Position numbers and translations under genes: made by a program | Notes under the pieces: generated by a model | Told to the model about the DNA's origin: nothing | Databases searched by the model: none | Seen by the model: the letters and a program-made list of their open reading frames with translations, nothing else | Shown here: piece by piece, positions 2-20,577 of the stretch | How the letters are laid out: each line of letters starts with the position of its first letter | Numbering within the stretch: the stretch's first letter is position 1 | Source of the DNA: an uncultured Mucispirillum sp. | GTDB taxonomy: Bacteria > Chrysiogenota > Deferribacteres > Deferribacterales > Mucispirillaceae | Assembly (NCBI GenBank): GCA_944323205.1 | Contig: CALURO010000008.1 | Location: forward strand, 42,660 to 106,659 | Direction: 5' to 3' | DNA length: 64,000 nucleotides

Positions 2-2818
2 ATGGAATATTCCAGTATGCTTTATGTAAAAAATCCAGACGAAATGTATAATGATTTCAGCTACTGTATAGAAGCTGTTGAAAATACTGTAAAGATAGCA
101 GAAAGATGTAATGTAAGCATAACTTTTGATATAAACCACCTGCCCCAATACGAAGTGCCTGAAGGCTATACTCTTGAATCATATTTTAGAGAACTTTCAG
201 AAAACGGGCTTAGGCAAAGGCTTAAAAATGTGCCTGAAGAAAAGCATAATATATACTGGGAACGGCTTAATTATGAGCTTGAAATTATTATTATGAAAGG
301 CTTTGATGCATACTTTTTAATAGTATGGGATTTTATTAACTATGCAAGAAAAAATAATATCCCAGTAGGGCCGGGCAGGGGCTCAGGTGCTGGCTCACTT
401 GTAGCATATTCATTATCTATTACAGATATTGACCCTATAAGGTTTAAGCTTTTCTTTGAAAGGTTTTTAAACCCAGAGCGTGTAAGTATGCCTGACTTTG
501 ATATAGATTTTTGTATAAGAGGCAGAGAGGAAGTTATAAAATATGTAAGCCAGAAATACGGGGAAGAAAAGGTATCTCAGATAGTAACATTTGGCACATT
601 AAAGCCAAAGAATGCTGTCCGAGATGTATGCAGAGTATATAATACTCCCCTTGTAGAAGTAAACAAGCTGGCAAAATCAATACCTGATGGTCCAAGTATT
701 ACTACTTTTCAAAAAGCATATGATGCAGACCCGGAACTTTACAACAGGTTTGAAAATATAGAGCATGGGGCAGAAATACGCAGACACAGTGAAAATTTAG
801 AAGGTGCAATCCGTCAGGTAGGAATGCACGCAGCTGGAGTTGTGATAGCAGATAAACCACTTGTAGAGTATGCACCCCTTGCAAAAGGTCCAAAAGGCGA
901 GGTAATTGTCCAGTTTGAGAAAAAAGCAGCAGAATCTGTTGGTCTTATTAAGTTTGACTTTTTAGGGCTTAAAAACTTAACTATCATTGATGAGGCAGTT
1001 AAAAGAATACATGCAGCAATAGATAAAGATTTTGATATAAATCATCTTACACTTGATGATAAAGAAGTATATGAAATGCTGCAGCAAGGTGATACATCTG
1101 GTGTATTCCAGCTGGAAAGTTCTGGCATGAAATCACTGCTTAAAAGGCTGCGTCCTACAGTTTTTGAAGATATTATTGCTGCCAATGCATTATACCGTCC
1201 AGGACCTATTGAAAGTGGTATGCTTGACAGCTTTATAAAAAGAAAACATGGTGAAGAAGAAATAATATATCCTTTTGAAGAAATCAAGGATATATTAGAA
1301 GAAACTTATGGCGTTATAGTTTATCAAGAGCAGGTTATGCAGATAGCTCAGGTTTTAGGTGGATATTCCCTTGGTGCTGCTGATATGCTTAGGCGTGCAA
1401 TGGGTAAAAAAGATAAGAAAGAAATGGAGCAGAACAGAGATATTTTTCTTTATGGTGATGAAGAAAAAAATATCCCGGGTGTGCAAAAGCTTGGAAAAGA
1501 TGTGCAGAAAGCATCAGATTTATATGATTTAATAGATAAATTTGCAGGCTACGGCTTTAATAAATCACACTCAGCAGCTTATGCTTATGTTGCATACCAG
1601 ACAGCATATTTAAAACTAAAATATCCAAAAGAATATATGAGTGCTTTATTATCTGTATCTATTGATAATATAGATGATGTAGTAAAATATATAGATGAAT
1701 GTGCAAGAATAGGTATAAAAATCCTTCCCCCTGATATTAATAAAAGTTACTATGATTTTAGGGTGGAAGAAGATGGTATCCGTTTTGGGCTTGGAGCAAT
1801 AAAAAGTGTAGGTCAGGCAGCTATAGAGTCGTTTATAATAGAGCGGGAAAAAAATGGAGCCTACACAAGCATATATGACTTATGCGACAGAATGGATTTT
1901 AAATCAGCAGCTAATAAGAAAACAATAGAAGCATTTATTTATTCAGGCACACTTGACTGTTTTGGTAAATCTCGTCATCAGCATTTATGTGTGTATATGG
2001 AAGCACTTGAAGCAGCAGCAAGAAAAGCGAAGGACAGGGAAAAAGGGTTTGGCTCAATAGAAGATTTCTTAATTGGAGAAAAGGAAGAGTTTTATCCAGA
2101 TGTGGAAGAACTCTCTGCAAGAGAGCTGCTTTCACGGGAAAAAGAAATATTAGGATTTTACTATTCAAGCCACCCGTTAAGGGAATATAACAAATATATA
2201 GAAACTTTTGCAGAAGATATAGAGCTTGTAAACAGTATGCGAAGCGAAGGTGAAGTAGTAGTTGCAGGTATGATTAAAAGCATACGCCAGTATATCACAA
2301 AAACTAAAAAAGAAAAAATGGCTTTTTTAGAGCTGGAAGATGCAATAAATAGTGTAGAGGTGGTAGTTTTTCCAAAAACTTATGCAGATAATATTATGCA
2401 CTTAAAAGAAGATAATATAATCGCTGTTAAGGGAGTATTTACACCAAACCACGAAGAAGGCACAGGCTCTATTACTGCAAGAAAAATTATGACTTTAGGG
2501 CAGGCGTTAGAAGAAAATACTTCCTGCTTAAAAATAACAATAGACACTAAAAAATCAACGCCAGATAGAGTGTTTCAAATAAAAACTCTGCTTGCTCGGT
2601 TTAAAGGCAGTCTTCCTGTGCAGCTTGTATTTATTCTGCCTAATAAATACAGAGTGTTAATGAGTGTATCTGAAGAATATAAAGTATGTCCTGAAACAGA
2701 GTTTTTAGAGCTTTTAAAACAGGTGCCGGGTATTGTAGATATAGAGTTGATGCCGTTAGGTGTTACATATTTAATAAAAGAAGAAGATTATACTATTGAT
2801 ACATGGAGCATAGCATAA
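2..2818 (+). CDS. dnaE: DNA polymerase III alpha subunit (5' end probably outside the window)
   Basis: GPGRGSGAGSLVAY, RVSMPDFDIDF, GLIKFDFLGL, YGFNKSHSAAY motifs and a C-terminal OB fold. Confidence 0.97.
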   Translation: MEYSSMLYVKNPDEMYNDFSYCIEAVENTVKIAERCNVSITFDINHLPQYEVPEGYTLESYFRELSENGLRQRLKNVPEEKHNIYWERLNYELEIIIMKGFDAYFLIVWDFINYARKNNIPVGPGRGSGAGSLVAYSLSITDIDPIRFKLFFERFLNPERVSMPDFDIDFCIRGREEVIKYVSQKYGEEKVSQIVTFGTLKPKNAVRDVCRVYNTPLVEVNKLAKSIPDGPSITTFQKAYDADPELYNRFENIEHGAEIRRHSENLEGAIRQVGMHAAGVVIADKPLVEYAPLAKGPKGEVIVQFEKKAAESVGLIKFDFLGLKNLTIIDEAVKRIHAAIDKDFDINHLTLDDKEVYEMLQQGDTSGVFQLESSGMKSLLKRLRPTVFEDIIAANALYRPGPIESGMLDSFIKRKHGEEEIIYPFEEIKDILEETYGVIVYQEQVMQIAQVLGGYSLGAADMLRRAMGKKDKKEMEQNRDIFLYGDEEKNIPGVQKLGKDVQKASDLYDLIDKFAGYGFNKSHSAAYAYVAYQTAYLKLKYPKEYMSALLSVSIDNIDDVVKYIDECARIGIKILPPDINKSYYDFRVEEDGIRFGLGAIKSVGQAAIESFIIEREKNGAYTSIYDLCDRMDFKSAANKKTIEAFIYSGTLDCFGKSRHQHLCVYMEALEAAARKAKDREKGFGSIEDFLIGEKEEFYPDVEELSARELLSREKEILGFYYSSHPLREYNKYIETFAEDIELVNSMRSEGEVVVAGMIKSIRQYITKTKKEKMAFLELEDAINSVEVVVFPKTYADNIMHLKEDNIIAVKGVFTPNHEEGTGSITARKIMTLGQALEENTSCLKITIDTKKSTPDRVFQIKTLLARFKGSLPVQLVFILPNKYRVLMSVSEEYKVCPETEFLELLKQVPGIVDIELMPLGVTYLIKEEDYTIDTWSIA

Positions 2819-3660
2819 TGGTAAAAAAAGCATTAACCATAGCAGGAAGCGACAGTGGCGGCTGTGCAGGAATACAGGCTGATATTAAAACAATGGGGGC
2901 ATTAGGTGTGTTTGGCATGAGTGTTATTACTGCAGTAACTTCTCAAAATACACTTGGTGTTACATATATTGAAGAATTAAGCACAAAATCAGTTATTACT
3001 CAGATAGAAGCAGTATATGATGATATAGCACCTGATGCTGTAAAATCTGGTATGCTTTTTTCAAAGGATATAATAGAAGCAGTATCTGATGTATTAAAAT
3101 CAAGAAATAAAAGCCCTTATGTTTTAGACCCTGTAATGGTTGCCACAAGCGGCGCAAAGCTTTTAAAAGATGACGCTGTTTCTTATATGGTGGAAAATCT
3201 TTTTCCACTTGCCTTTGTAGTTACTCCAAATATACCAGAGGCAGAGCTTTTAAGCGGCATTAAAATAGAATGTCAGAAACATATAGATACTGCATGCAGG
3301 AAAATAAAAGCATTAGGTGTACAGAATGTTATAATAAAAGGTGGCCATTTTAACGGGGAAGAATCTGTTGATACATTATATGACGGAGAAAACCATTATG
3401 AAATAGCTGCTATGCGTGTAGTAACAAATAATACTCACGGAACAGGCTGCACTTATTCTTCTGCAATATGTTCATATCTTGCATTAGGTTTTACCCTGCT
3501 TGATGCTGTAAAGTATGCAAAACAATATATTACTTCTGCCTTAATTTACGGGGCAGAGATGAATATAGGTATGGGGAGCGGACCTGTAAACCATTTTTTT
3601 GAAAATACAAAAAATAATAATGACGGCACAATATCTTTTGGGAGCTGCACCTGTGGCTGA
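2818..3660 (+). CDS. thiD: Hydroxymethylpyrimidine/phosphomethylpyrimidine kinase
   Basis: ALTIAGSDSGG.AGIQAD, LDPVMVATSG, HGTGCT. The ATG at 2818 overlaps the dnaE stop (TAATG). Confidence 0.95.
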   Translation: MVKKALTIAGSDSGGCAGIQADIKTMGALGVFGMSVITAVTSQNTLGVTYIEELSTKSVITQIEAVYDDIAPDAVKSGMLFSKDIIEAVSDVLKSRNKSPYVLDPVMVATSGAKLLKDDAVSYMVENLFPLAFVVTPNIPEAELLSGIKIECQKHIDTACRKIKALGVQNVIIKGGHFNGEESVDTLYDGENHYEIAAMRVVTNNTHGTGCTYSSAICSYLALGFTLLDAVKYAKQYITSALIYGAEMNIGMGSGPVNHFFENTKNNNDGTISFGSCTCG

Positions 3661-4387
3661 TATATATAAAGAGTATGACTGTTTTGCTTATTTTTATAAT
3701 AAATACTGGACGATTAATGCACCACTTTATTTAGAAAAGGCACTTGATATTCTTCTTCTTGAAAAATTAGAAGAAAATGCACATATTTTAGATGTATGCT
3801 GTGGCACTGGTAATGTGGCAGGTCTGCTTTCTGCAAAGGGATATCATATGACAGGGCTTGACGGCTCAAAGCTTATGCTTGACTATGCAAAGGAAAATGC
3901 TCCAGCTGTTGATTTTATTCATGCAGATGCAAGGTATTTTAATTTAGACAGGAAGTTTCAAGCTGTAATATGCCTTTTTGACAGTATAAACCATCTTTTA
4001 AATCAAGATGATGTATTAAAAGTATTTAAAAATATTTATGAGCATACAGAAGAAAATGGAATATTTGTTTTTGATGTGAACTCGCTTTCATCATCAACTG
4101 ATGTAGATTTAAGTGATTTTTCTGCTGTGGAAGAGAATGAAGTTTTTATTTCTCAGGGCTTATATAACAGTATAGAAAAATTAATAACATACTCTTTAAC
4201 TGCATTTATTAAAGAAGATAATAAATGGGTAAGGTATGATAATAAAATATATGAAAGATATTATGAAGAAGAGCTTTTAATATCTTTACTAAAAGATGCA
4301 GGGTTTAAAAATACTGCTTATACTTACGGGGCAGATATAGGGATAGAGCCTTTTGAAGACAGAGTATTTTTTACAGCGTGGAAATAG
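3653..4387 (+). CDS. Class I SAM-dependent methyltransferase
   Basis: ILDVCCGTG motif I, GLDGS, ADAR. Likely GTG start at 3653 behind GGAG (ORF track starts at 3599). Confidence 0.88.
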   Translation: MADIYKEYDCFAYFYNKYWTINAPLYLEKALDILLLEKLEENAHILDVCCGTGNVAGLLSAKGYHMTGLDGSKLMLDYAKENAPAVDFIHADARYFNLDRKFQAVICLFDSINHLLNQDDVLKVFKNIYEHTEENGIFVFDVNSLSSSTDVDLSDFSAVEENEVFISQGLYNSIEKLITYSLTAFIKEDNKWVRYDNKIYERYYEEELLISLLKDAGFKNTAYTYGADIGIEPFEDRVFFTAWK

Positions 4388-4388
4388 T

Positions 4389-5762
4389 ATGAAAAAGTTA
4401 ACTTTATTTTTATTTATGGTTTTATTTGTATCTAATGTTTACAGTGCAGATTTGCAGGGAGTAGGCTATGGCTCTACAATGGAAGAAGCAAAGCAGGAAG
4501 CATTAGCAGATTTATCTGCATCAGTTAAAGTGCAGGTATTTTCAAAGCATGAGCAGACTACATATAAAACTCAGGATAAATTAGAGTCAGATTATACACG
4601 ATGGACAAGGCTTTCTACAAATGTGCCGCTTTTAAATCCGTCAATATATTATTCAAGAGAACAGGGTAAACATAGAGCAACCGCAGTAATTGATAAGCCA
4701 GCATTATATAGTGAAAAGCTGTCAGATATTGCAAAGCGTATTGATGATATAACAAAAGATGTAAAAGTGGCAGGTGATAAAGCATTAAATTACAGGATAT
4801 TAAAATCAGTTCAGAGCTTATATGATGAATATGAAAGCTATCAGGTGGTGGCAGATGTGCTTGGTATAAAAGATTATCCATCACCACGAATAAGCAGTGG
4901 GGACGCCTTAAAAATGATACTTGAAATGCAGGAAACGCCGCCAAGTCTGGAAGTAGCAGCAGAAGTGCTTACAAAAGATATGAATGAAAAAAATATATAT
5001 GTAGCACCAGTTATGTATGCAGGTAAAGAAAATGTTACAGAGTTTGGAGCATTTTTTAAAGATATGCTTTCAACTAAGGTAAACTCTGTGGAAATAGAAG
5101 AAGACGGTAGAAACAAACTCCGCTGCACATATACTCAAAGCGGCAGTGATATTATTATGGCATGCTCACTTATTACTGGCGTATCAAAAGTATTAAAATC
5201 ATCAGCAGTAAAAATTCCAAAAGAGCTTGTAACAATGGAGACAGTGCCAAAAACAGATGTATCATCTATTTTAAACACATATACTCCACCAAAAACAGAT
5301 TATAAAATATGGATAAAAATATCTACAGATGGTGACGCTTCATTTTTACGGGAAAATGAGCCATTTACTCTGCTTGTAAAAGCTAATAAACCGGGTTATA
5401 TATATTTTCTAACAGTAAATAATGCACCAGACGGAGAGGCTAATATTTTACTTTTAGACTGGAATAATAAGTTTATAAAATATATAGATGAAAATAATGT
5501 AAATAAATGGGTAAGTTTAGGCAAATACAGAGTGCAGGCACCTTTTGGCAGTGAAACATTATATGCTTTTGGTTTAGAAAGAGAGCCGCAGCCTGAATAT
5601 ATTGTACCTGAATATACTCTTGATAAAATAGGTTATTTAAGAAATGTTCGCCCGGAAGTACTTATGCAGGATACACTATATCTTTTTAAAAGACAGCAGG
5701 GAGATAAAACTATGTCATCTATTACATATACAACAGCACCAAACAGAAAGAAAATGCAGTAG
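4389..5762 (+). CDS. Exported protein with an LPP20-like N-terminus and a DUF4384-like C-terminal domain
   Basis: Signal peptide MKKLTLFLF..VYSA; GVGYG..EEAKQEALADLS; C-terminal FTLLVKANKPGYIYFL...APFGSETLYAF. Confidence 0.6.
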   Translation: MKKLTLFLFMVLFVSNVYSADLQGVGYGSTMEEAKQEALADLSASVKVQVFSKHEQTTYKTQDKLESDYTRWTRLSTNVPLLNPSIYYSREQGKHRATAVIDKPALYSEKLSDIAKRIDDITKDVKVAGDKALNYRILKSVQSLYDEYESYQVVADVLGIKDYPSPRISSGDALKMILEMQETPPSLEVAAEVLTKDMNEKNIYVAPVMYAGKENVTEFGAFFKDMLSTKVNSVEIEEDGRNKLRCTYTQSGSDIIMACSLITGVSKVLKSSAVKIPKELVTMETVPKTDVSSILNTYTPPKTDYKIWIKISTDGDASFLRENEPFTLLVKANKPGYIYFLTVNNAPDGEANILLLDWNNKFIKYIDENNVNKWVSLGKYRVQAPFGSETLYAFGLEREPQPEYIVPEYTLDKIGYLRNVRPEVLMQDTLYLFKRQQGDKTMSSITYTTAPNRKKMQ

Positions 5763-6894: not shown

Positions 6895-6900
6895 ATTTGC

Positions 6901-7012
6901 TTATTTTAAGATAACGGTAGAAGTTAAAATAAAATATGCCTTATTTTAAGATAATGGCTGAACTTAAAATAACAGCTTGCTTATTTTAAGATAATAGGTT
7001 AACTTAAAATAA
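6901..7012. repeat. Three 32-bp imperfect palindromes at an exact 40-bp period
   Basis: TTATTTTAAGATAA-N6-AA(C/G)TTAAAATAA starting at 6901, 6941 and 6981. Confidence 0.9.
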
Positions 7013-7024
7013 GAAAATAAAAAA

Positions 7025-7044
7025 GGCAGGTTTACATACCTGCC
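7025..7044. terminator. Intrinsic terminator between convergent genes
   Basis: GGCAGGT-TTACAT-ACCTGCC preceded by an A run (a U run on the minus strand). Confidence 0.7.
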
Positions 7045-7052
7045 ATATAATT

Positions 7053-7766
7053 TTACTTGTTTTTATCCTTATTCTTTTTTTGTTTCGGTATTCGTTTATG
7101 TATATTTTTATTAACAATAAGTGCACATATAAAAATCATGATGATTGTTGTATAAAAAATGATATATGCATCTCTTATAGTATCAACAGAATTAATCAAA
7201 CCATATAGTACAATTAAGGAACTAATTATTAATATAATAAAATTAAATATGTTTAAAGATGTAACAACATTACTTGTAGTAGAATAATACCCATTTTCAA
7301 ACAGTTTATAATATTGCTGTTTTTCTTGTTGTTCTATTAAATCAATTAGTCTTCTGCTATTTAGTATTTGCATATAAGTATTAATCATATTTAAATATAT
7401 AAATATAAAAAAAGTAAAAGATAATGAAGCAATAAGATAAAATAAGTACCGAGTCATTTCATCTATATTTTTTGTATCCTTTATGTCTTGCAGTATGTCA
7501 TCATAGAATCCTATAACAATTGAAAAGATAGAAAAGAAAAAGGCAATATACCCAAAGTATATTGCAATATTATGATGATAAACACTATAACTTTTTTCTA
7601 GAACATCTTTTTTGTCATCTCCTAAATTAGCAACATAATCCTCTGTAATTAATGATAATGAATTTGTATCATTAATTTGTTTGTGTTTTACAATACGTAT
7701 CATCATACAAATAATTAATATTACAATAGGAATCATAAATAAAATAAATAAAATTAATTCTTGCAT
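7053..7766 (-). CDS. Hypothetical multi-pass (about 5 TM) membrane protein, paralogue A
   Basis: Five hydrophobic segments, basic C-tail, AAGGAG RBS; shares the NM.N.Y..I.N.R...FENGYY segment with 7830..8567. Confidence 0.75.
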   Translation of the reverse strand: MQELILFILFMIPIVILIICMMIRIVKHKQINDTNSLSLITEDYVANLGDDKKDVLEKSYSVYHHNIAIYFGYIAFFFSIFSIVIGFYDDILQDIKDTKNIDEMTRYLFYLIASLSFTFFIFIYLNMINTYMQILNSRRLIDLIEQQEKQQYYKLFENGYYSTTSNVVTSLNIFNFIILIISSLIVLYGLINSVDTIRDAYIIFYTTIIMIFICALIVNKNIHKRIPKQKKNKDKNK

Positions 7767-7829
7767 AATATTTTCTCCTTGAATGATATTTATATAACAA
7801 TATAAACATAAAGCGACAATAGATGTCGC

Positions 7830-8567
7830 TCATTTATCTTTATCTAGTAATTTATATTCTTTTCTATTTTTATACTGCCAGTTAGCAAGTGAAGCCATTA
7901 GTATTATAAGAGTAAATATTAATAATACTGCTAACTCTTTTACATCTTTAGACAGCATAAAAATACCTATAAATATCCATACTGGAGCTATAAATGCAGT
8001 AAATATGGCAAATAAATTTCTGTCATCATCATAATTCTGCTTATAAAAGCCATTTTCAAAAAAATCCATTAAATGCTGTTTTTTATAACTTTCTACCTGC
8101 CTTATATATATGCGGATATTAGCTATTTTATTATAAACATTTTCCATATTGCTGAATAATAAAAATGTAGTTATACCAAATAACAGCGGGATAAAAAACA
8201 ATATATTGATATAATTATAAAATGATGTAAGGATAAAGGCAAATAAACCGCCAAAAATAACCTGCAAAGAAAAGTAAAAAGCAGCTTTTTTCAGCAAAAT
8301 AAAATTTTGGTGCCTGTATTCTTCATAAGCAGCCTCTAAATGCTTATCAAGCACAATGTTTTCCACCACTTTTTTCTTATAAATTCTTTCAAAAAAATTA
8401 TCAAAAGAGATTTCGCTTAAAGCTTTTTTATTCTTTTTATTTACCTGTGATAAATCTTTAAACCTGCATAATGTTAGTATAAACATAGCAGCAGTGAAAA
8501 CAGATAAAAAAGTAACCAGCAGCACTTCAATAATCTCAATCACATTTGTTTGATTAATAAATTCCAT
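7830..8567 (-). CDS. Hypothetical multi-pass (about 5 TM) membrane protein, paralogue B
   Basis: Five hydrophobic segments, basic C-tail; NMENVYNKIANIR...FFENGFY. Confidence 0.75.
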   Translation of the reverse strand: MEFINQTNVIEIIEVLLVTFLSVFTAAMFILTLCRFKDLSQVNKKNKKALSEISFDNFFERIYKKKVVENIVLDKHLEAAYEEYRHQNFILLKKAAFYFSLQVIFGGLFAFILTSFYNYINILFFIPLLFGITTFLLFSNMENVYNKIANIRIYIRQVESYKKQHLMDFFENGFYKQNYDDDRNLFAIFTAFIAPVWIFIGIFMLSKDVKELAVLLIFTLIILMASLANWQYKNRKEYKLLDKDK

Positions 8568-8775
8568 ATATTTTCTACGTTAACTTGACGTTTCAATTAA
8601 ATATATAAGAAAGTTATCTATAAGCCAATATTATTTGATAATGGAAATGCATATTAGATTATTAAAATGATTTAAATAATTTTTAATACTTTAATTGTAT
8701 AAGTAAATTATATTGTAAATTAACTTGAAAAATAAATAATATTACTATAAAATTATAAAAAATATTAGGTGACAA

Positions 8776-11700
8776 ATGAAAAATAATAACTTATCTGAAG
8801 GCATATATGAGGAGCTAATAAATAATCAGTTAAGTAAAATATTAGAAACGAAAACTGATTATATAGTAGAAATAGAAGATATTGACCGTGAAGAAAGTTC
8901 ACTTATTTTATCAAATTATATTGGTCACCTTATTCGTGAAGGATTGCAATATATCCATAAAAGTGATGAAAAAGACAATATAAATAAAAAAGTAGAAATA
9001 ATAAATAAAATTATCAATATATTAGTAGAAAATACTGATGAAGAATATAGTTCATCTATTATTCCAGTGCCTGCACAACAATTACTGTCACTATATAAAA
9101 AAGAAAATAATATAATTTCTATAAATGATAAAATAAAAGTAGAGCGTCCAGTAACTTCTCTATGTCAAAGTTCTCTTTTTACTGGTGCAAAACATGAGCC
9201 GCAATTATTAAATGAAATAAAAAAAGAAATATCTACTTGTCATCAAATTGATATGTTAATTTCTTTTATTAAATATAGTGGTCTAACACTAATGCTTGAT
9301 AAATTAACTGAGTTTACAAATAACGGTGGTAGATTAAGAATTATTACAACTACATATATGAAAGCTACCGATATAAAAGCCATAAATGTATTAAAAACCT
9401 TAAAAAATACAGAAATTAAAATAAATTATAATACTAAATCAACAAGATTACATGCAAAAGCATATATTTTCCATAGAAATACAGATTTCTCTACAGCATA
9501 TGTTGGCTCATCAAATATTTCTGCCCCTGCTATGACAACAGGAACTGAGTGGAATATAAAGATTACTCAAAAAGATATGAGTGATACTTTTGATAAAATG
9601 AAAGCTACTTTTGAAACATATTGGAATGATAAAGAATTTATAGATTATGATGATACTCAAGAAGAAAAATTAGCGGAAGCACTAGATAAGAATATAGATA
9701 ATTTTAATAATTTTTTTGTAGATATTAGACCATACGGATTTCAACAAGAAATATTAGATGCATTACAAGCTGATAGAGAAATAAGAAATCAATATAAAAA
9801 TTTAGTAATTGCAGCAACTGGAACAGGGAAAACGATAATTTCTGCCCTTGATTATAAAAGGTTTTGTGCAAATAACCCACAAAGTGAATGTAGACTTCTT
9901 TTTATTGTACACAGAAAAGAAATTTTAGAGCAAAGTATAGCAACATATCGTGCTGTGTTAAGAGATAATAATTTTGGTGAACTTTATGTAGATGGGAAAA
10001 AACCTACTCAATTAAATTACTTATTTGCATCAATACAGACATTTAATTCTCAAGAGTTAACTAAAAAGACCAGTAAAGATTTTTATGATTATATAGTAAT
10101 AGATGAAACTCACCATGCAAGTGCTGACACATATCAAAAATTATTAGAATATTATGAGCCAAAAATACTTCTTGGTTTAACAGCCACTCCAGAGCGTGCA
10201 GACGGTAAAGATATTTTTAAATATTTTAATCATAGGATAAGTGCAGAAATTAGACTACCAGAAGCTATAGAAAGGGGATTATTATGTCCATTCCATTATT
10301 TTGGTGTCTCTGATAGTATAGATTATAGTGGTATTACTTGGGAACGTGGTAAATATAAAGAAAGTGAGTTAAATGATGTATTTACTATTGATGAAGCATT
10401 TGCAAAAACAAGGGTTAATACTATATTACAGGCTATAGATAAATATATTACAGATATAGATGAAATAAAAGGTGTTGGATTTTGTGTTTCAAAAGAGCAT
10501 GCAATTTATATGAGTAAACAGTTTAATAGTAGAGGCATTAACTCTATTGCATTAACTGCTGATAGTGAAAGTAGTTTACGAAGTGATGCTCGAAGTAAAC
10601 TAAAAAAGGGTGAATATAAATTTATTTTTGTAGTTGATATATATAATGAGGGCGTAGATATTCCAGAAATTAATACAGTGCTTTTTTTAAGACCTACAGA
10701 ATCTCTTACTATATTTTTACAACAATTAGGGAGGGGCTTAAGAAATGCGGATAATAAAGAATTTTTAACAGTGTTAGATTTTATTGGGCATGCACATAAA
10801 AAATATAATTTTGAAGAAAAATTTACTTCTCTTTTACACAAATCAAGACAAAAAATGGAAAATGAATTAAATAAAGGTTTTATATCTCTTCCTAAAGGCT
10901 GTTATATTACATTAGAGAAAAAAGCATCAGAATATATATTAGAAAATATAAAAGGGTATTTTAATAAAAATAATATTCATATAGAAAGATTAAAAACATT
11001 TAAAGAAGATTTTGGTCTTGAACCTACTTTAAAAAATTATCTTGAAAAATATAATCTTGAAGCTGGTAGTATTTATAAAACATTTTCATTTAACCAATTA
11101 TTATTGAAAGCAGGATTAAGAGAAGAATATAATGAGCCACTTTATGAAAATGCATATAAAATACTTGGTAAAATATCTCAAATTAATTCTATAAGATTTA
11201 TTGATTTTATAATTAATATTTTAAATAATAATATTAATATTACAAATGATTTAGAAAAAAGAATGTTGCAAATGTTCCAGTTTACTATAGATAATAATAT
11301 ATCAAAAGATATAACTTTTAATGAAATATTAAATAATGTAAAATTATTTAAAGAAAATAAAATATTATGTTCAGAAATTATTGAGCTATTAGAATACAAT
11401 AAATCAAAAATTGATTTTATAGATAAAAAAATTGATTTAGGTTTTGATTGTCCATTAGATGTTTATTGCAATTACAGTAAAGACCAAATTCTAACAGCTT
11501 GTGATTTTTTAAGTGTAGGAAGTGTACGTGAAGGTGTAAAATATATTGAAAAGAAAAAAATAGATATATTATTTGTAACATTAAATAAATCTGATAAAGA
11601 TTATTCACCAACTACAATGTATAAAGATTATTCATTAAATGAAAAACTTTTCCACTGGCAAAGTCAAAACCAAACAGCAGAAAATAGCACAGTAGGGCAA

Positions 11701-11916
11701 AGATATATTCGCCATAAAGAAACAGATAATAAAATATTACTTTTTGTAAGAGATGAAAAGAAAAATAAATATGGAGAAACAGCAATATATACTTTTTTAG
11801 GCACAGCAAATTATAAATCACATGAAGGTAGTAAACCGATGAGTATAATATGGGAACTTGATTTTCCAATACCTGCAAAATATATAAAAGAAACTCAAAA
11901 AATGGTTGCTATATAG
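8776..11916 (+). CDS. PLD nuclease-SF2 helicase-DUF3427 protein (SauUSI-like candidate modification-dependent restriction enzyme)
   Basis: LHAKAY..AYVGSSN PLD motif; AATGTGKT; IDETHH; GLTATPER; EGVDIP; QQLGRGLR; C-terminal YKDYSLNEKLFHWQSQ. Confidence 0.85.
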   Translation: MKNNNLSEGIYEELINNQLSKILETKTDYIVEIEDIDREESSLILSNYIGHLIREGLQYIHKSDEKDNINKKVEIINKIINILVENTDEEYSSSIIPVPAQQLLSLYKKENNIISINDKIKVERPVTSLCQSSLFTGAKHEPQLLNEIKKEISTCHQIDMLISFIKYSGLTLMLDKLTEFTNNGGRLRIITTTYMKATDIKAINVLKTLKNTEIKINYNTKSTRLHAKAYIFHRNTDFSTAYVGSSNISAPAMTTGTEWNIKITQKDMSDTFDKMKATFETYWNDKEFIDYDDTQEEKLAEALDKNIDNFNNFFVDIRPYGFQQEILDALQADREIRNQYKNLVIAATGTGKTIISALDYKRFCANNPQSECRLLFIVHRKEILEQSIATYRAVLRDNNFGELYVDGKKPTQLNYLFASIQTFNSQELTKKTSKDFYDYIVIDETHHASADTYQKLLEYYEPKILLGLTATPERADGKDIFKYFNHRISAEIRLPEAIERGLLCPFHYFGVSDSIDYSGITWERGKYKESELNDVFTIDEAFAKTRVNTILQAIDKYITDIDEIKGVGFCVSKEHAIYMSKQFNSRGINSIALTADSESSLRSDARSKLKKGEYKFIFVVDIYNEGVDIPEINTVLFLRPTESLTIFLQQLGRGLRNADNKEFLTVLDFIGHAHKKYNFEEKFTSLLHKSRQKMENELNKGFISLPKGCYITLEKKASEYILENIKGYFNKNNIHIERLKTFKEDFGLEPTLKNYLEKYNLEAGSIYKTFSFNQLLLKAGLREEYNEPLYENAYKILGKISQINSIRFIDFIINILNNNINITNDLEKRMLQMFQFTIDNNISKDITFNEILNNVKLFKENKILCSEIIELLEYNKSKIDFIDKKIDLGFDCPLDVYCNYSKDQILTACDFLSVGSVREGVKYIEKKKIDILFVTLNKSDKDYSPTTMYKDYSLNEKLFHWQSQNQTAENSTVGQRYIRHKETDNKILLFVRDEKKNKYGETAIYTFLGTANYKSHEGSKPMSIIWELDFPIPAKYIKETQKMVAI

Positions 11917-12044: not shown

Positions 12045-12662
12045 GAGCCTGTGAAAAAAAGTCTGTAAATTCAGTTTTCTATGATTATATTTTTACATAT
12101 CCTGCTCTATGAATACCAGAATAAAGTTATTCAGTCAAGAGCAGGTTTATTTTTCACATTTTTATATCCTATTCAGGCAGCCGTCCTTCATACATAATGC
12201 TTAATTCCCCATAAACTTGAGCCCAGTTCCTAATAGTACCAGTCCATTTTTTAGCTGCTTCAAATGTTGCCAAATAAAGAGCCTTTAAAAGTGCTGTATC
12301 ACTTGGAAATACACTCCGTTGACTGTTTAATTTACGATAGACAGAATTTAATGATTCTATTGTATTTGTTGTATATATGACTTTCCTAACTGACATAGAG
12401 AATTTTTAAATATAGGGAAAATACAATCCCAGTTTTCTTTCCACCGCTTCATAGTATTAGGGTATAACTGGAACGCTCTAATTTGCTGTAACCTAAATGG
12501 GTATCTATTTCTGTTTCCATCATCTCTTTAATGGTGCCACCTAACAGGTCTTTTAAGGCTTCTTGAATATCATTAGCTGATTTAATATCATATTCTGATA
12601 ATAAATTCGATATTATTTGACGCTTACCCTCCGTCATTTTACAGACTTTTTTTCACAGGCTC
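12045..12662 (-). mobile_element. Internally deleted IS256-family element, copy 1
   Basis: Perfect 25-bp terminal IR GAGCCTGTGAAAAAAAGTCTGTAAA; transposase N-fragment (DIQEALKDLLGGTIKEMM) and C-fragment (RKVIYTTNTIESLN). Confidence 0.9.
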
Positions 12663-12739
12663 GCTTAACTGTTGCAATCGTTTTTAGAATTTACTCTTAC
12701 AGGATAGACTAAAAATCTGCATTTTTTTAAAATATTTAC

Positions 12740-12769
12740 TTGACAAACTAACTTATTTCTGGTTATAAA
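12740..12769 (+). promoter_or_regulatory. Sigma70-type promoter of tRNA-Arg
   Basis: TTGACA-N18-TATAAA ending 13 bp upstream of the tRNA. Confidence 0.6.
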
Positions 12770-12782
12770 TACAGTCTAATAT

Positions 12783-12856
<74 letters not shown>

Positions 12857-12861
12857 CTTTT

Positions 12862-12891: not shown

Positions 12892-12981
12892 ATTTTTATC
12901 TTTCTGCACTTTTTTAATATCATCAGATTATTACGTCATCTATTGTCGCGCTGATACTGCATTATGTGTTAATATGTATAA

Positions 12982-13035: not shown

Positions 13036-14985
13036 ATGGGAGAAACATATTCTGAAAATAACAACATATTAGAGTTAAAATCTATTTCTAATATACATAA
13101 TGAAAAATTTATTATTCCCTCTTTCCAGCGTGGTTACAGGTGGGAACCTGTTCAGGTAATTACACTTCTTGAAGATATAAAAGAATATATTGAAAAAAAA
13201 TTAGATACTTTTATGTGCCTGCAGCCAGTTGTATTTTATAAAAAAAATAATAACGATAATAAATTAGAAGAATTAGTTGTTGTAGATGGGCAGCAAAGAC
13301 TTACTACTATTGCTGTAATTAGTAGATGCTTAGGACTTGATAATATAAATATAGAATATAATAAAAATAATAAGGCATTGCAGGATATACTAAATAATGT
13401 AGAAAGCTATCTTAACACAAATAAGATGGATATAAATAACTTATTTAATGACGATAATAAATTATTATTTGAAAAAACTAGTGAAATATATAAAAAGATT
13501 TATCTATCTGCCAGAAACAATTCTGATAAAGTTAATTTATTAGATGAATATTATATTATTTTATCATATTTAACCATTAAATGCTGGCTGGAAAATGAGA
13601 AAAATATAGAAGAAAGTATTAAAAGTATTAAAAATCTTTTCACATCTGATAAAGATAATTTTTCTATTAAATTTATATGGTATGATGTAACTGGGGAAAT
13701 TAATGGTAAAGAAACAAAAGCCATAAATATTTTTACAAGATTAAATATTGGAAAAATAGAACTTACAGATGCGGAACTAATCAAAGCGTTATTTTTGAAA
13801 AAAGATAATTTTAAAGATAGTGAATTAGATAAAAAACTTCATATTGCATATAAATGGGACGAAATAGAAAAAACCTTAAATAATGACAGTTTTTGGTATT
13901 TTTTAAGCAATGATAAAGATAAACCAAAAAAAGATAGAATAGAGCTGGTACTAGAACTTGCAGCAAATATAAAAAATGATGAACAGCATAACCTGTTTAG
14001 AAATTATGAAAATAAATTAAAAAATAAAAATGAACTTGATAAGCACTGGCAGGCTGTTGAAGAATGCTTTATGACATTAAAAGAATGGTATAATGATAAT
14101 GAAATGTATCACTATATAGGCTTTTTATTAAATAATAAACTTGAATCATTAGAAAATATATATACAAATATATATACAAATAAACTTGAATCATTAGATA
14201 ATATATATAAACGTGATATTATTAAAAATAAAGTAATAGAAAAAATTAAAACAAAAATAAATGTAGACGAAGTAAAGAATTATACATATTATAATAATGA
14301 AGAAGAAATAAAATTAATCTTATTTTTTTCAAATATTTATGAAACAATTCATTCTAATCAAGCACGCAACAAAAAAGGTTCTGTAACTGAAACAATAACA
14401 AATAGATTTCCTTTTGATTTATATATTAAAGAGGATTTTGATGTAGAACATATAGCACCACAAACAGAAAATCCATTAAATAATAAAGAAGACCGTATTA
14501 AATGGTTTAAAGACTCTTATGAATATCTAGAAAAAATAGATTTTAGTAAGATAAATGATGATGAAATAAAAAATAATTTAACAGAAGAAAATATTAAAAA
14601 AATAATTGAAAATGAAGATAACAAGAATATAAATAATATTATTTTTAATAGTGAAAAATGGAATATTATATATAACTATATACTTGAAACTGCAATAGAA
14701 AAAGGTAAAAATATTAATTTAGAAGATGAAGAACATTGTTTAGGCAATCTTGTTTTACTGCCAAGAGATATTAATCGTGCGTATAAAAATGCGCTTTTTG
14801 GTATAAAAAGAAAATATATTATAGATAAGGAAACAGAAAAATATAGATTTATCCCTGTTGTTACAAGGCATGCATTTCTAAAATATTATAGTAAAAATAT
14901 TATAGATTTATGGACACAAGAAGATGCAGAACAATTTAAAAAAACAATCATTAATAACTTAAAAGAATTTTTAGGAATTAATTAG
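13036..14985 (+). CDS. DUF262 + DUF1524/HNH protein (GmrSD-like)
   Basis: IPSFQRGYRW, VVDGQQRLTT, FTRLN; C-terminal DVEHIAPQ...LGNLVLLPRDINRAYKN. Confidence 0.85.
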   Translation: MGETYSENNNILELKSISNIHNEKFIIPSFQRGYRWEPVQVITLLEDIKEYIEKKLDTFMCLQPVVFYKKNNNDNKLEELVVVDGQQRLTTIAVISRCLGLDNINIEYNKNNKALQDILNNVESYLNTNKMDINNLFNDDNKLLFEKTSEIYKKIYLSARNNSDKVNLLDEYYIILSYLTIKCWLENEKNIEESIKSIKNLFTSDKDNFSIKFIWYDVTGEINGKETKAINIFTRLNIGKIELTDAELIKALFLKKDNFKDSELDKKLHIAYKWDEIEKTLNNDSFWYFLSNDKDKPKKDRIELVLELAANIKNDEQHNLFRNYENKLKNKNELDKHWQAVEECFMTLKEWYNDNEMYHYIGFLLNNKLESLENIYTNIYTNKLESLDNIYKRDIIKNKVIEKIKTKINVDEVKNYTYYNNEEEIKLILFFSNIYETIHSNQARNKKGSVTETITNRFPFDLYIKEDFDVEHIAPQTENPLNNKEDRIKWFKDSYEYLEKIDFSKINDDEIKNNLTEENIKKIIENEDNKNINNIIFNSEKWNIIYNYILETAIEKGKNINLEDEEHCLGNLVLLPRDINRAYKNALFGIKRKYIIDKETEKYRFIPVVTRHAFLKYYSKNIIDLWTQEDAEQFKKTIINNLKEFLGIN

Positions 14986-14996
14986 GAAGCGCAATT

Positions 14997-17294
14997 ATGA
15001 ATATAAATAATATAAAAGATAATAAGGTAATTATAAAAACATCTAATATATCACAAATAAAAATTCCTATGATACAGCGTGATTATGTGCAAAGCTTAGA
15101 CGATAAAAAATTTAAAAAATTTCTTAATGTTTTAGTTGATGCATTAAATAATGGTACGGAGCTTTCTCTTGATTTTATATATGGCAATATTAATGAAGAT
15201 GGCGTATTTGAACCAATAGATGGGCAGCAAAGATTAACTACTCTTGCTTTATTAACCGTTTATCTGTATTGCAGACAAAGTGAAAATATTTTACAAAACC
15301 CATTTGAATATATAACTTATGCTACAAGACAAAGTGCAAATAATTTCTGCCAGCTTTTAAGAGGTGATAAGTGGAAAAATAAATTTAATGATACTGATAA
15401 TCCATCAAATATAATAAAAAATGACATAAAATATTTTAAAGAATATGATGAAGATACAACTATTTTTGCAATGTTACAAGCATTAGATAAAATCCATAAC
15501 AGTATAAAAAACCAAGATATAGATAGTTTAACAAAAAATATTAGCAATATATCTTTCCATATTTTTCCAATGGAAAGCTTTAATTTATCAGATGATTTAT
15601 ATATAAAAATGAATGGTCGTGGCAAACAGCTTTCAAGTTTTGATAACTTTAAAGCAGATTATTTTAAATGGTTAGAAGAAAATGAAAAAAATATAGCTGA
15701 AGATATAATAGATATAAAAAATAACTTTAATAATAAATATATTGATATCTTTTGGGATTTTACATTTGAAAATAACAATAAAATACCTGACCCTGAAAGC
15801 TTATTTTTTAGGTTTATAAATAGGTTTATTATAGCTAAAAATGATTTATCACAAAACATTATATCTGATAATTTTATTAATGACTCTGAAGACATGAACT
15901 ATATATATAATTCATTTGAAATTTATAAAATAACTTTTCAAAATCATCATAAAGCTTTCATTACTCTTTTAGAGAATCTAACTAAAATTAGCAATATAAA
16001 TGATTATTTTCAACATAATATAGAAAATTATGAAGAAAATACATCTGTGAAATTTAATATATCTGATAAATTAACTTTTAAAACCAGATTTGCATATAAT
16101 TATATAATGAGATTTTTTGAAGAAACAAATTGTACTGAAAAAGTTGATGAAGCTAAAAAATATGCTAGAATTATCTGGAACATTACTGAACAATATTTTA
16201 CTCTAAATGAAGTTAATAAAAATAGTTATATTACAGCTGTTAATGGTATGATACAAGTTGATAATATAAAGTGGGATAATATTTATCATTCATTTCATAA
16301 ATTAGAAATTAAAGAATGCAAAACACATATGCAAAGAATACTTTGTGATGAAATAAAAAAATGCTCTTATATCATAGAAGAACCTGAATTAGAAGAAAAA
16401 TTTAAGACTCTGGAACAACTTCCTTATTTAAATGGTGCTATTGGATTCCTGCTGGGTAAAGATAAAGATGATTTTAATAAAATATATGATACTGCTTTAA
16501 ATGTATTTAGTGAAAATAAACAACACGTATTCAATATATATAATAATAATTATTTACTTAATAGAGCTGTAGTTAAAAAATTATTTGAAGATTCTAGAGA
16601 AAATGATATATTATTCAACCCATTTAATAATAAATTTTTAAAAGAATACTTAATCAGCAGTGAAAATATTCGCGATATTACTCAAAATATTTTATTAAAT
16701 CATAACTCATATCTAATTAATGATAATGAATATACAGATTTTATCTCTAAATATCATAATGATAATGATACTATTACTAAACACATATGTTTATCTGAAA
16801 TATCTGCATTAATTCACTGTAAAATACAAGATAATTATCTAATTAACAAGTATTTTATATTTAAATATAATAATAATATTTACCTGTGTGAAATTAAGTA
16901 TAAAAAATATCAAAATAATTCATCAGATAAAAAAAAATCATCTTTAATCATTGATAATCAAATATGTAAATTATTATATAATATTAAAACATTATTAGAC
17001 AAGAATAAGTCAAATAATGTAGTAGTGTATGAGCCTTTTAATAAAATAGATATTATAGAAAATGAAATATATGGATTTAATAATGTAGCTAGAACCAGGT
17101 ATGATATAAATATAAACTTTAATATAGGCTCTATTAAATATCAATTTTGGATTTCAGGAGATATAATGGCTATAGAAAAATTTGAAAACGATACTTATAA
17201 TTCTATTGAAGTAAAGTCTAATATTAAATATAGTGATATGGAAGATTATAGTAAAAACATGATAAAGCTTATTGAAGAACTTATTGATTCATAA
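14997..17294 (+). CDS. Second DUF262 protein with an unassigned C-terminal half
   Basis: IPMIQRDYVQ, IDGQQRLTTL, YIKMNGRGKQLSSFDNFKA; no EH.PQ motif seen. Confidence 0.8.
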   Translation: MNINNIKDNKVIIKTSNISQIKIPMIQRDYVQSLDDKKFKKFLNVLVDALNNGTELSLDFIYGNINEDGVFEPIDGQQRLTTLALLTVYLYCRQSENILQNPFEYITYATRQSANNFCQLLRGDKWKNKFNDTDNPSNIIKNDIKYFKEYDEDTTIFAMLQALDKIHNSIKNQDIDSLTKNISNISFHIFPMESFNLSDDLYIKMNGRGKQLSSFDNFKADYFKWLEENEKNIAEDIIDIKNNFNNKYIDIFWDFTFENNNKIPDPESLFFRFINRFIIAKNDLSQNIISDNFINDSEDMNYIYNSFEIYKITFQNHHKAFITLLENLTKISNINDYFQHNIENYEENTSVKFNISDKLTFKTRFAYNYIMRFFEETNCTEKVDEAKKYARIIWNITEQYFTLNEVNKNSYITAVNGMIQVDNIKWDNIYHSFHKLEIKECKTHMQRILCDEIKKCSYIIEEPELEEKFKTLEQLPYLNGAIGFLLGKDKDDFNKIYDTALNVFSENKQHVFNIYNNNYLLNRAVVKKLFEDSRENDILFNPFNNKFLKEYLISSENIRDITQNILLNHNSYLINDNEYTDFISKYHNDNDTITKHICLSEISALIHCKIQDNYLINKYFIFKYNNNIYLCEIKYKKYQNNSSDKKKSSLIIDNQICKLLYNIKTLLDKNKSNNVVVYEPFNKIDIIENEIYGFNNVARTRYDININFNIGSIKYQFWISGDIMAIEKFENDTYNSIEVKSNIKYSDMEDYSKNMIKLIEELIDS

Positions 17295-17386: not shown

Positions 17387-17959
17387 ATGGCAGCATTTAT
17401 ATCAATTTTTCTTGCATTTGTTGCAGCACTTGTTAGTGCATTTGCTCTATATACCGTTAAAAATTCCAAAGAAACTGGTGATAATCACTTAGATGAGATT
17501 ATGCGATTAAAACAGCAGATAAATGAAACTAACGACAGGCTGGCACAGCTGAAACATGACCATAATATGTTACAAGACCAGTTTAAAAAATTACAGGAAA
17601 TATCTATTAATAATGATATGCAGGTGCTTTTAAATACTGCAATTAAAGATTATAATGATATTGCAAGTGTTACTCCAGAAGAAGGCAGCATAGGAAAACA
17701 TGAAAAAGCTAGAAAACAGGCAGCTGAAAAAGTATTACAGGCATGTAATGAAGTATGCCAGCGATTTATAGCAGAAGATTTAAGCCACAATACTTTTGCT
17801 TCTGTTTATAAATCACAGCTGCAGGATATACTAAACAGCGATGATTTAAAGGAAATATATTCCAGTCTTAAAAGCAGGTACCCGTATATTGAACGGGTAC
17901 TACTTGCTCCACTTGATGAAAGTATCACTCCAAACTTTGACCAGATTTCTGCAAACTAA
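17387..17959 (+). CDS. Hypothetical membrane-anchored coiled-coil protein
   Basis: N-terminal hydrophobic helix, heptad-rich segment, GGGAGG RBS. Confidence 0.75.
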   Translation: MAAFISIFLAFVAALVSAFALYTVKNSKETGDNHLDEIMRLKQQINETNDRLAQLKHDHNMLQDQFKKLQEISINNDMQVLLNTAIKDYNDIASVTPEEGSIGKHEKARKQAAEKVLQACNEVCQRFIAEDLSHNTFASVYKSQLQDILNSDDLKEIYSSLKSRYPYIERVLLAPLDESITPNFDQISAN

Positions 17960-17983
17960 TCTTTTACAATTATAATATCTCTA

Positions 17984-20560: not shown

Positions 20561-20577
20561 ACGACACTATATGTCGT
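20561..20577. promoter_or_regulatory. Palindromic operator candidate upstream of nrdBA (NrdR-box-like, also CGAC-N7-GTCG)
   Basis: ACGACA-CTATA-TGTCGT; the overlapping ACACTATATGTCGTTT fits the NrdR consensus at most positions. Confidence 0.5.

Follow-up and report, generated by a model that had tools for sequence, protein, structure and literature searches.

True members of the 8xMP family (Pfam PF24838), such as WP_124937281.1, are called 'RipA family octameric membrane protein' at NCBI. The RipA protein of Francisella is an inner-membrane protein required for intracellular growth (PMC4322802; reviewed in PMC12444477); a Francisella ripA deletion is suppressed by lpxA mutations, and RipA interacts with LpxA (PMC4322802, PMC12444477). 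The connection between Francisella RipA and PF24838 consists of the NCBI name only, and only the RipA-LpxA papers were found in the literature, with no primary description of 8xMP/PF24838 or of a RipA structure. The present analysis concerns two adjacent genes, here called A and B, in a stretch of 64,000 nucleotides (nt) from an uncultured Mucispirillum sp. (contig CALURO010000008.1; the whole stretch is referred to as the window). Their products very probably represent a distant branch of the 8xMP/RipA superfamily, and their alleles are replaced as cassettes at one chromosomal slot filled with defence genes.

Two other groups of membrane proteins invite comparison. In the first, Csx28 forms an octameric pore and strengthens the defence provided by Cas13b. 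Like other oligomeric membrane defence effectors, it resembles A and B as a small helical inner-membrane protein encoded at defence loci, for which a ring is proposed. In contrast, no sequence or fold match between Csx28 and A or B was found, and Csx28 needs a partner sensor, Cas13b, of a kind that is not evident for A and B. The SLATT proteins, effector modules with two transmembrane (TM) helices in SMODS/SLOG/TIR conflict systems, share with A and B a helix-TM-TM-helix core and the cytoplasmic position of the conserved parts. Weak SLATT matches were obtained with one family member (P0034, SLATT_5, E = 0.011) and with a true 8xMP protein (SLATT_1, E = 0.22). Membership in SLATT is not supported: only one of the 22 members of the A/B family matches, and no TIR, SMODS, SLOG or cyclase gene adjoins any copy. 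Among about 20 loci there is a single TIR-like gene, CAP12-PCTIR_TIR of L003, which is some 6 kb distant and part of a type I restriction-modification (RM) cluster.

Genes A and B and their relationship to 8xMP

The two genes are the following.

7830-8567, minus strand: paralogue A, an open reading frame (ORF) of 245 amino acids (aa) with five TM helices, N-terminus outside; A clade of a RipA/8xMP-like family of Mucispirillum.
7053-7766, minus strand: paralogue B, an ORF of 237 aa with five TM helices, N-terminus outside; B clade of the same family.

An earlier note on this DNA described a tandem pair of five-TM paralogues that share a soluble helix and have diverged in the rest. Both ORFs are present, and each encodes five TM segments according to a Kyte-Doolittle scan. 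The count of 16 identities in the gapless 36-residue helix segments was reproduced directly, and this helix is the best-conserved part of the family. The similarity does not end there, however: it is full-length and extends beyond one helix, since the BLASTP alignment of A and B covers 240 residues with 29% identity (E = 3e-12). A and B are genuine genes and old duplicates.

The N-termini of both proteins are acidic and without lysine or arginine (K/R), while their two long soluble segments are rich in K/R, and the C-terminal tails are basic, as had been noted (6 K/R per 15 residues in A and 9 per 19 in B). This distribution predicts an N-out topology, which places the tail and the two conserved soluble helices in the cytoplasm. 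The conservation peak (residues 139-176) is the cytoplasmic helix that follows the TM hairpin, and the conserved polar residues (N140, N143, N150, E159, and FENG-Y) are all on the cytoplasmic face, while the periplasmic loops are merely 2-8 residues long. Therefore, the active or sensing surface is probably cytoplasmic.

Single-sequence searches of Pfam, NCBIfam, PADLOC, and PHROG models with A and B gave nothing significant, and no component model of PADLOC-DB 2.0 matches either protein at E <= 0.1. The earlier statement that no family could be recognised is fair at this level. It does not hold at the profile level, where the supposed new family is placed as a remote branch of the catalogued 8xMP/RipA family. 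In a permissive Pfam scan, sub-threshold matches to PF24838 were found in 14 of the 22 family members, and these are colinear and span profile positions 2-135 of 136. The best score (27.1 bits, E = 4e-6, for the protein P0052) is below the Pfam gathering cut-off of 30 bits, and the A/B family thus does not qualify for membership in PF24838 by that cut-off.

For profile-to-profile comparison, a set of true 8xMP proteins was drawn from the same phylum and from 80 genomes across many phyla. Aligned by hhalign against 78 true 8xMP proteins, the family gave a probability of 93.4% (E = 2.4e-7), and against 57 of them 89.4% (E = 2.1e-6, 152 columns). Control values were E = 0.035 for a reversed alignment and 0.16-0.74 for ten column shuffles. 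Without P0052, which bridges the A/B family and 8xMP, the values were 82.5% and E = 1e-5. Homology to the 8xMP core is therefore observed at the profile level, above the controls.

The architectures also correspond. The colinear 8xMP core consists of a cytoplasmic helix, a TM hairpin, a conserved cytoplasmic helix and two C-terminal TM helices, and all of these are present in A and B in the same order. The AlphaFold2 (AF2) model of a true 8xMP member is confident, with a predicted local distance difference test score (pLDDT) of 85, and has helices at 18-62, 69-108, 113-118, 129-135, 142-165, and 176-195. The all-helical, low-confidence model of A has helices at 70-115, 122-162, 166-174, 179-205, and 210-234. 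The main helices of the latter have the order and lengths of those in the true member; the short helix at 129-135 is extra and has no counterpart in A. No match was found in sequence searches of PDB with the family profile and two 8xMP profiles, and Foldseek searches of PDB with the A model and the 8xMP model yielded generic helical-bundle noise (E >= 0.9).

The A/B family differs from 8xMP in several respects. It has an extra N-terminal TM helix and a charged linker, it is confined to one genus, and it is hypervariable. The residues that are invariant in 57 sampled 8xMP proteins (R-K-F-E, Y-W-x-R, G-S-K, Q-E-N-W-E-x-H, and G-P-L) are not kept. The sampled 8xMP motifs are RKFE..YW.R, NRGSK.WQENWE.H, and GPLYK, whereas A and B have L..AY.EY.H, NM.N.Y..I.N.R...E, and FENG.YK instead, and what the alignment shares with 8xMP is limited to an Asn where the TM hairpin ends, a single Glu in the helix, and a Y-K-like end. 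Taken together, both as an evolutionary and as a structural classification, A and B very probably form an outlying branch of the 8xMP/RipA superfamily that carries an additional TM anchor at the N-terminus.

The family is small. A word-indexed search of 5.8 billion proteins returned 23 relatives for A and 10 for B, and 22 proteins were obtained at E <= 1e-3 when 1.84 billion cluster representatives were searched exhaustively with the profile. Identities range over 35-93% within the A clade and 27-75% within the B clade, and three singletons (P0040, P0050, and P0052) are about 16-27% identical to all others. Four of 13 Mucispirillum species genomes carry the family (E <= 0.001), and a fifth (G010) has a frameshifted copy. 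None of 28 genomes of other genera of the order has a copy, and searches with the A/B family and PF24838 found no A/B-family copy in Deferribacterota genomes beyond Mucispirillum. They did return three 8xMP-type matches there, two genomes being above the Pfam cut-off and one match weak. The A/B-type genes, very probably a fast-changing branch of RipA/8xMP, were found only in one slot of gut Mucispirillum, with the exception of P0052.

This exception (L028, positions 171-908) has no close relatives and lies on a contig of 28% GC with DUF6261, DUF2971, Abi_2, AAA_15/21, and Peptidase_M78 genes. Neither tblastn searches of 50,697 phage records with A and B nor a pattern scan of IMG/VR found a phage or viral copy. 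An origin as a prophage moron or superinfection-exclusion gene is accordingly unsupported.

Like A and B, the 8xMP genes are single genes without a fixed partner, and no recurrent partner was found among 146 ORFs flanking 79 true 8xMP genes. These neighbours include, as raw counts without a background, Mrr (3), integrases (3), HamB, SduA, reverse transcriptases, RM genes, AAA_21, and Abi_alpha. Another Deferribacterota genome (G041; L034, positions 1429-3423) has a true 8xMP gene (142 bits) located two genes upstream of a gene for a restriction endonuclease of the Mrr type; Mrr_cat is among the few families that recur (3 of 146) near the 8xMP genes of other phyla.

The chromosomal slot and the exchange of alleles

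All the recovered loci except L028 occupy one chromosomal slot, a restriction/defence hotspot. One side of the slot is conserved (SSF-dnaE-thiD-methyltransferase-LPP20-like-WD40), and the far side is ppx-ppx-ppk in most genomes. The hotspot is otherwise filled with restriction, toxin-antitoxin (TA), Fic, and ATPase defence genes. GC content is 0.23-0.24 across 7-9 kb of the window, compared with 0.32-0.37 in the flanking core genes. The defence-island association that had been proposed as a check on homologues was thus looked for and found, in all the examined loci but one, at the same hotspot of a single genus. In the window, the neighbour of A is the following.

8776-11916, plus strand: type IV restriction enzyme of the PLD-helicase-DUF3427 type (PLDc_2/RE_NgoFVII, ResIII, Helicase_C, DUF3427), divergent from A.

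The enzyme matches the PADLOC model mREase_IV (E = 7e-220), and its divergent orientation and the AT-rich island are as described in the earlier note. The configurations in the slot vary widely. An A-clade or singleton gene stands alone directly after the type I RM genes hsdR-ygjP in six loci (L001, L003, L005, L024, L031, and L016), and A stands alone after Dcm-Vsr with a HATPase/Z1/DUF4420/AIPR system in L023. The order A->B occurs after a Dcm-Vsr-AIPR system in L006-9 and near the PLD-helicase in the window and L022. A B-clade gene is alone and divergent from the PLD-helicase in L017-19, L039-40, and L038, and the order B'->A, with a spacer of 474 bp, is found near the PLD-helicase in L020. 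Solitary genes include A-clade genes in at least six loci and B-clade genes in at least three. Conversely, each of the accompanying systems occurs in the genus without a TM gene: hsdR-ygjP in G008 and G012, the PLD-helicase in G001 (an orthologue of 81% identity), and Dcm-AIPR in G007.

Because the configurations vary and the systems occur without a TM gene, the TM genes are not obligate partners of any nuclease or of each other. The consistent co-occurrence and fixed order expected of an obligate two-gene module are not found, and the upstream elements of the two genes are separate, where such a module would be co-transcribed. A and B are separate, swappable genes, and the PLD-helicase is a neighbour, not an obligate partner. 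A functional link to the restriction-like nuclease, beside which the earlier note placed the pair, is not borne out, since type I RM, type IV or Dcm-Vsr-AIPR-Z1 may be alongside.

The turnover of alleles is most clearly seen where the surroundings are nearly identical. L003, L031, and L044 share 97-98% nucleotide identity through hsdR-ygjP, and on the WD40 side L044 and L031 are 98% and 93.5% identical, respectively, to L003. The homology reaches about 21 nt into the TM gene. The TM alleles that follow are mutually unalignable (A-clade, the singleton P0050, and a B-like frameshifted allele). Likewise, L016 and the window are 92% identical in WD40 and 94% in the LPP20-like protein, compared with about 21-26% in the TM protein. 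Overall, identities between genomes are 56-94% for core neighbours, 70-99% for restriction genes, and 17-100% for TM proteins.

In the closest pairs (L020, L022, L023, and L024), the synonymous divergence (dS) of A, B, and the PLD-helicase is 0.007-0.17, compared with 0.23-0.56 in adjacent core genes. The island genes have therefore moved between lineages after the lineages split. Between the window and L022, B is 99.9% and A 95% identical in nucleotides; thus A and B have different exchange histories. For A, the ratio of nonsynonymous to synonymous divergence (dN/dS) is 0.23-0.30; for B, compared with L006, it is 0.32, and the core flanks have 0.07-0.21. It follows that the TM alleles are replaced as cassettes, that the exchange is recent, and that A and B are under purifying selection.

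Two loci show further details. In L044 (G010, positions 996-1746), the TM allele after hsdR-ygjP has a B-like N-terminus and an insertion of about 45 residues in the periplasmic TM2-TM3 loop. This allele is interrupted by a frameshift at an A/T run and is either a pseudogene or the product of an assembly error. In L020 (positions 4326-4798), one frame of the spacer that separates B' from A appears to encode the C-terminal part of a Vsr endonuclease, and an A-type promoter block comes next. The apparent vsr 3' end fits a mosaic origin by recombination, and suggests that L020 derives from a Dcm-Vsr-A arrangement into which the PLD-helicase and B' recombined.

Regulatory and boundary elements

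The elements found around A and B in the window are listed below.

8600-8628, minus strand: candidate sigma-70-type promoter of A, TTGGCT-17-TATATT, from a consensus scan.
7813-7829, no strand: palindrome GCGACAATAGATGTCGC, 46 nt upstream of the B start and immediately after the A stop; candidate operator.
7775-7780, minus strand: Shine-Dalgarno sequence AAGGAG of B, read from the intergenic sequence and kept in L006, L020, and L022.
7025-7044, no strand: bidirectional intrinsic-terminator-like hairpin after B, with a 7-pair stem (5 G-C pairs) and T runs on both strands.
6900-7019, no strand: array of three 40-bp palindrome units (TTATTTTAAG-N12-CTTAAAATAA), between the WD40 stop codon and the B terminator.

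A conserved block TTGACT-N17-TATATA (TTGACTTATAGATAA..TTATATAT) precedes the A-clade genes in the window, L005, L006, and L020; where a TM gene directly follows ygjP, a ribosome-binding site (RBS) alone intervenes. For B, a palindrome CGACA-N5-TGTCG (at most one mismatch) is found 42-52 nt upstream of the B-clade gene in 10 of 10 loci, including those without A, and is absent from all nine checked loci without a B-clade gene. The palindrome in the window also scores as a terminator-like hairpin for A. A role as merely the terminator of A is rejected, because it precedes B-clade genes without an upstream A. As an odd-length GACA/TGTC palindrome, it is also a poor fit to an NrdR box. Since each gene has a conserved upstream element and a hairpin or terminator, A and B look, from these predicted elements, like self-contained promoter-to-terminator cassettes with separate regulatory regions.

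The array of 40-bp units is unique in the 2.36-Mb genome, and 12 of 18 related loci have 1-4 copies of the unit at the corresponding WD40 boundary. When genomes are compared, their homology ends within the array or next to it, which makes it a candidate recombination or boundary element.

Two more copies of CGACA-N5-TGTCG are located at 12934-12948 and 20562-20576, upstream of a DUF262/GmrSD-like operon and of nrdBA. The window has three copies where 0.18 would be expected, a number not reached in any of 100 shuffles. Over the whole genome, matches with one mismatch are no commoner than those of a reversed control. A regulator shared by B, the DUF262 operon, and nrdBA is possible.

The far side of the slot in this genome holds several other elements. 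The region 12169-12857 contains pieces of a Mutator/IS256-family transposase on the minus strand (12169-12637) and then tRNA-Arg(TCT) at 12783-12857. Two adjoining GmrSD_N (DUF262) proteins are encoded at 13036-17294. For the first, PADLOC gives matches to Orf5, HEC-06, and SspE-type models; for the second (765 aa) it gives none, and the C-terminal half of the second is unassigned. At 17387-20101, at the far end of the low-GC island, are a 190-aa ORF (plus strand) and a 705-aa ORF (minus strand), neither with a Pfam match at E <= 1e-4. Next comes nrdBA, instead of the ppx-ppk of the relatives. This replacement suggests a rearrangement at the insertion sequence remnant on the far side of the slot.

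Possible functions and significance

The explanation that we favour, with a rough probability of 0.45 weighted to its functional part, is the following. A and B would be two separately transcribed cargo genes, not one two-subunit machine, placed just inside the hotspot boundary between the WD40 and ppx/ppk genes. Each protein very probably consists of an 8xMP body with an extra N-terminal TM anchor, and recombination swaps the cassettes between strains regardless of the restriction system in the slot. By analogy with the family name, and from the conserved residues facing the cytoplasm, each protein may form a homo-oligomeric ring in the inner membrane, of which the cytoplasmic face would be the business end. 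Such a ring could be a self-contained conflict protein that excludes phages or causes abortive infection; a change in membrane permeability upon a trigger is one conceivable way. In mechanistic terms, the idea of a stand-alone homo-oligomeric effector that would compromise the membrane in defence against phages is put forward tentatively, at somewhat short of an even chance.

A role in conflict rather than in housekeeping is preferred because the genes are accessory and of low GC, lie in a hotspot filled with defence genes, and combine cassette turnover with purifying selection. The restriction/defence island also makes the anti-phage role guessed in the earlier note a reasonable one.

A number of points count against this explanation. 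Neither a sensor domain nor a trigger is evident in A or B. The minimal periplasmic exposure disfavours a classical mechanism of blocking injection. Since a single hotspot of a single genus underlies the defence-island association, it amounts to one evolutionary observation. The only studied namesake, Francisella RipA, has been connected with LpxA and envelope physiology and not with phages (PMC4322802, PMC12444477), and the 146 ORFs around true 8xMP genes are heterogeneous and include housekeeping genes. The structural model of A is of low confidence (pLDDT 64). In addition, A and B themselves have no 8xMP match in the Pfam scan, and the 8xMP profile signal is partly supplied by divergent 'bridge' sequences: hhalign without the three singletons gives a probability of 60% and E = 9e-5, and of the single clades compared with 8xMP the B clade gives E = 6e-4 and the A clade E = 0.07.

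Of the alternatives, an unlikely one that survives best is that A and B are orphan immunity proteins against membrane-targeting toxins of competitors (of the type VI secretion system (T6SS), contact-dependent, or bacteriocin type), stacked and swapped like immunity arrays. Hypervariable alleles, their replacement as cassettes in near-identical backgrounds, the tandem stack of diverged paralogues, the patchy occurrence across the genus, and small polytopic proteins under purifying selection would all be expected of such genes. However, no toxin, Rhs, contact-dependent inhibition (CDI) or T6SS effector gene adjoins any copy in about 20 loci, the neighbours all being nucleic-acid-directed defence, TA or Fic genes. 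Moreover, the best-conserved part of the proteins is in the cytoplasm, not in the membrane or periplasm, and their homology is to 8xMP, which is not known as an immunity family.

A second alternative takes the TM proteins as accessory subunits that tether or regulate a restriction enzyme at the membrane, namely HsdR for the A type, co-transcribed after hsdR-ygjP, or the PLD-helicase for the B type, as a divergent promoter pair. The spacing lends it some plausibility: the TM gene begins 18-24 nt after ygjP in L001, L003, and L031, with only an RBS in between, and the B-clade gene and the PLD-helicase are divergent at a fixed spacing in L017-19 and L039-40, with the same arrangement in L038 and L020. 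It is nevertheless very unlikely in view of the TM-free hsdR-ygjP, PLD-helicase, and Dcm-AIPR systems described above, and A also adjoins the PLD-helicase (window and L022) and Dcm-Vsr (L006 and L023). Furthermore, wholly different TM alleles are found beside hsdR-ygjP genes that are 97% identical, with which a co-evolving interface is hard to reconcile.

The heteromeric pair proposed in the earlier note, in which A and B would be obligate subunits of one mixed membrane complex, has in its favour the A->B tandem with a spacer of 63-65 nt that is kept in two lineages (the window and L022, and L006-9), between which A is 58% and B 75% identical. This model is now highly improbable, because loci with a single gene are the majority, A and B each occurring alone, the order is reversed to B'->A in L020, each gene has its own upstream element with a hairpin between the two, and the two genes differ in their identity to L022. 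The last alternative, an envelope-physiology protein like Francisella RipA (lipid A/envelope biosynthesis) with defence genes as neighbours by chance, draws on the profile homology to RipA/8xMP and on the genetic and physical interaction of RipA with LpxA (PMC4322802, PMC12444477), but is very doubtful for genes that lie in low-GC accessory DNA, are missing in most Mucispirillum species (with a frameshifted copy in G010), and show a horizontal exchange and hypervariability unlike a housekeeping regulator, the RipA-PF24838 link itself being the NCBI name alone.

To return to the favoured explanation of A and B as stand-alone conflict proteins, a broader form of it may be sketched, though its chances appear slim. 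RipA/8xMP rings would then be widespread, uncatalogued single-gene membrane immune effectors, whose population biology Mucispirillum would display with unusual clarity: at least eight highly divergent alleles (17-50% mutual identity) would compete for one position and be exchanged as promoter-to-terminator cassettes, sometimes two stacked, in the manner of immunity or specificity genes. A single host regulator of the palindromes before B, the DUF262 operon, and nrdBA might couple nucleotide-metabolism or DNA stress to the induction of several defence genes.

Within a catalogued and functionally obscure superfamily, the A/B family is a new variant, hypervariable and extended at the N-terminus. 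Should it have no role in conflict, what is left is a variable membrane protein of one lineage, which would be of modest interest. Genes that adjoin restriction enzymes, as the finding also shows, need not be the partners of those enzymes. The 8xMP/RipA family is large and catalogued, with its function essentially unexplained, and the locus described here is a natural experiment, in which many divergent alleles have occupied one slot in closely related gut bacteria. The exchange of alleles independently of the restriction systems, together with purifying selection, is the pattern expected of genes in conflict with phages or competitors. This pattern of allele turnover is the most useful contribution of the analysis, as it makes a conflict role for 8xMP-like proteins testable.

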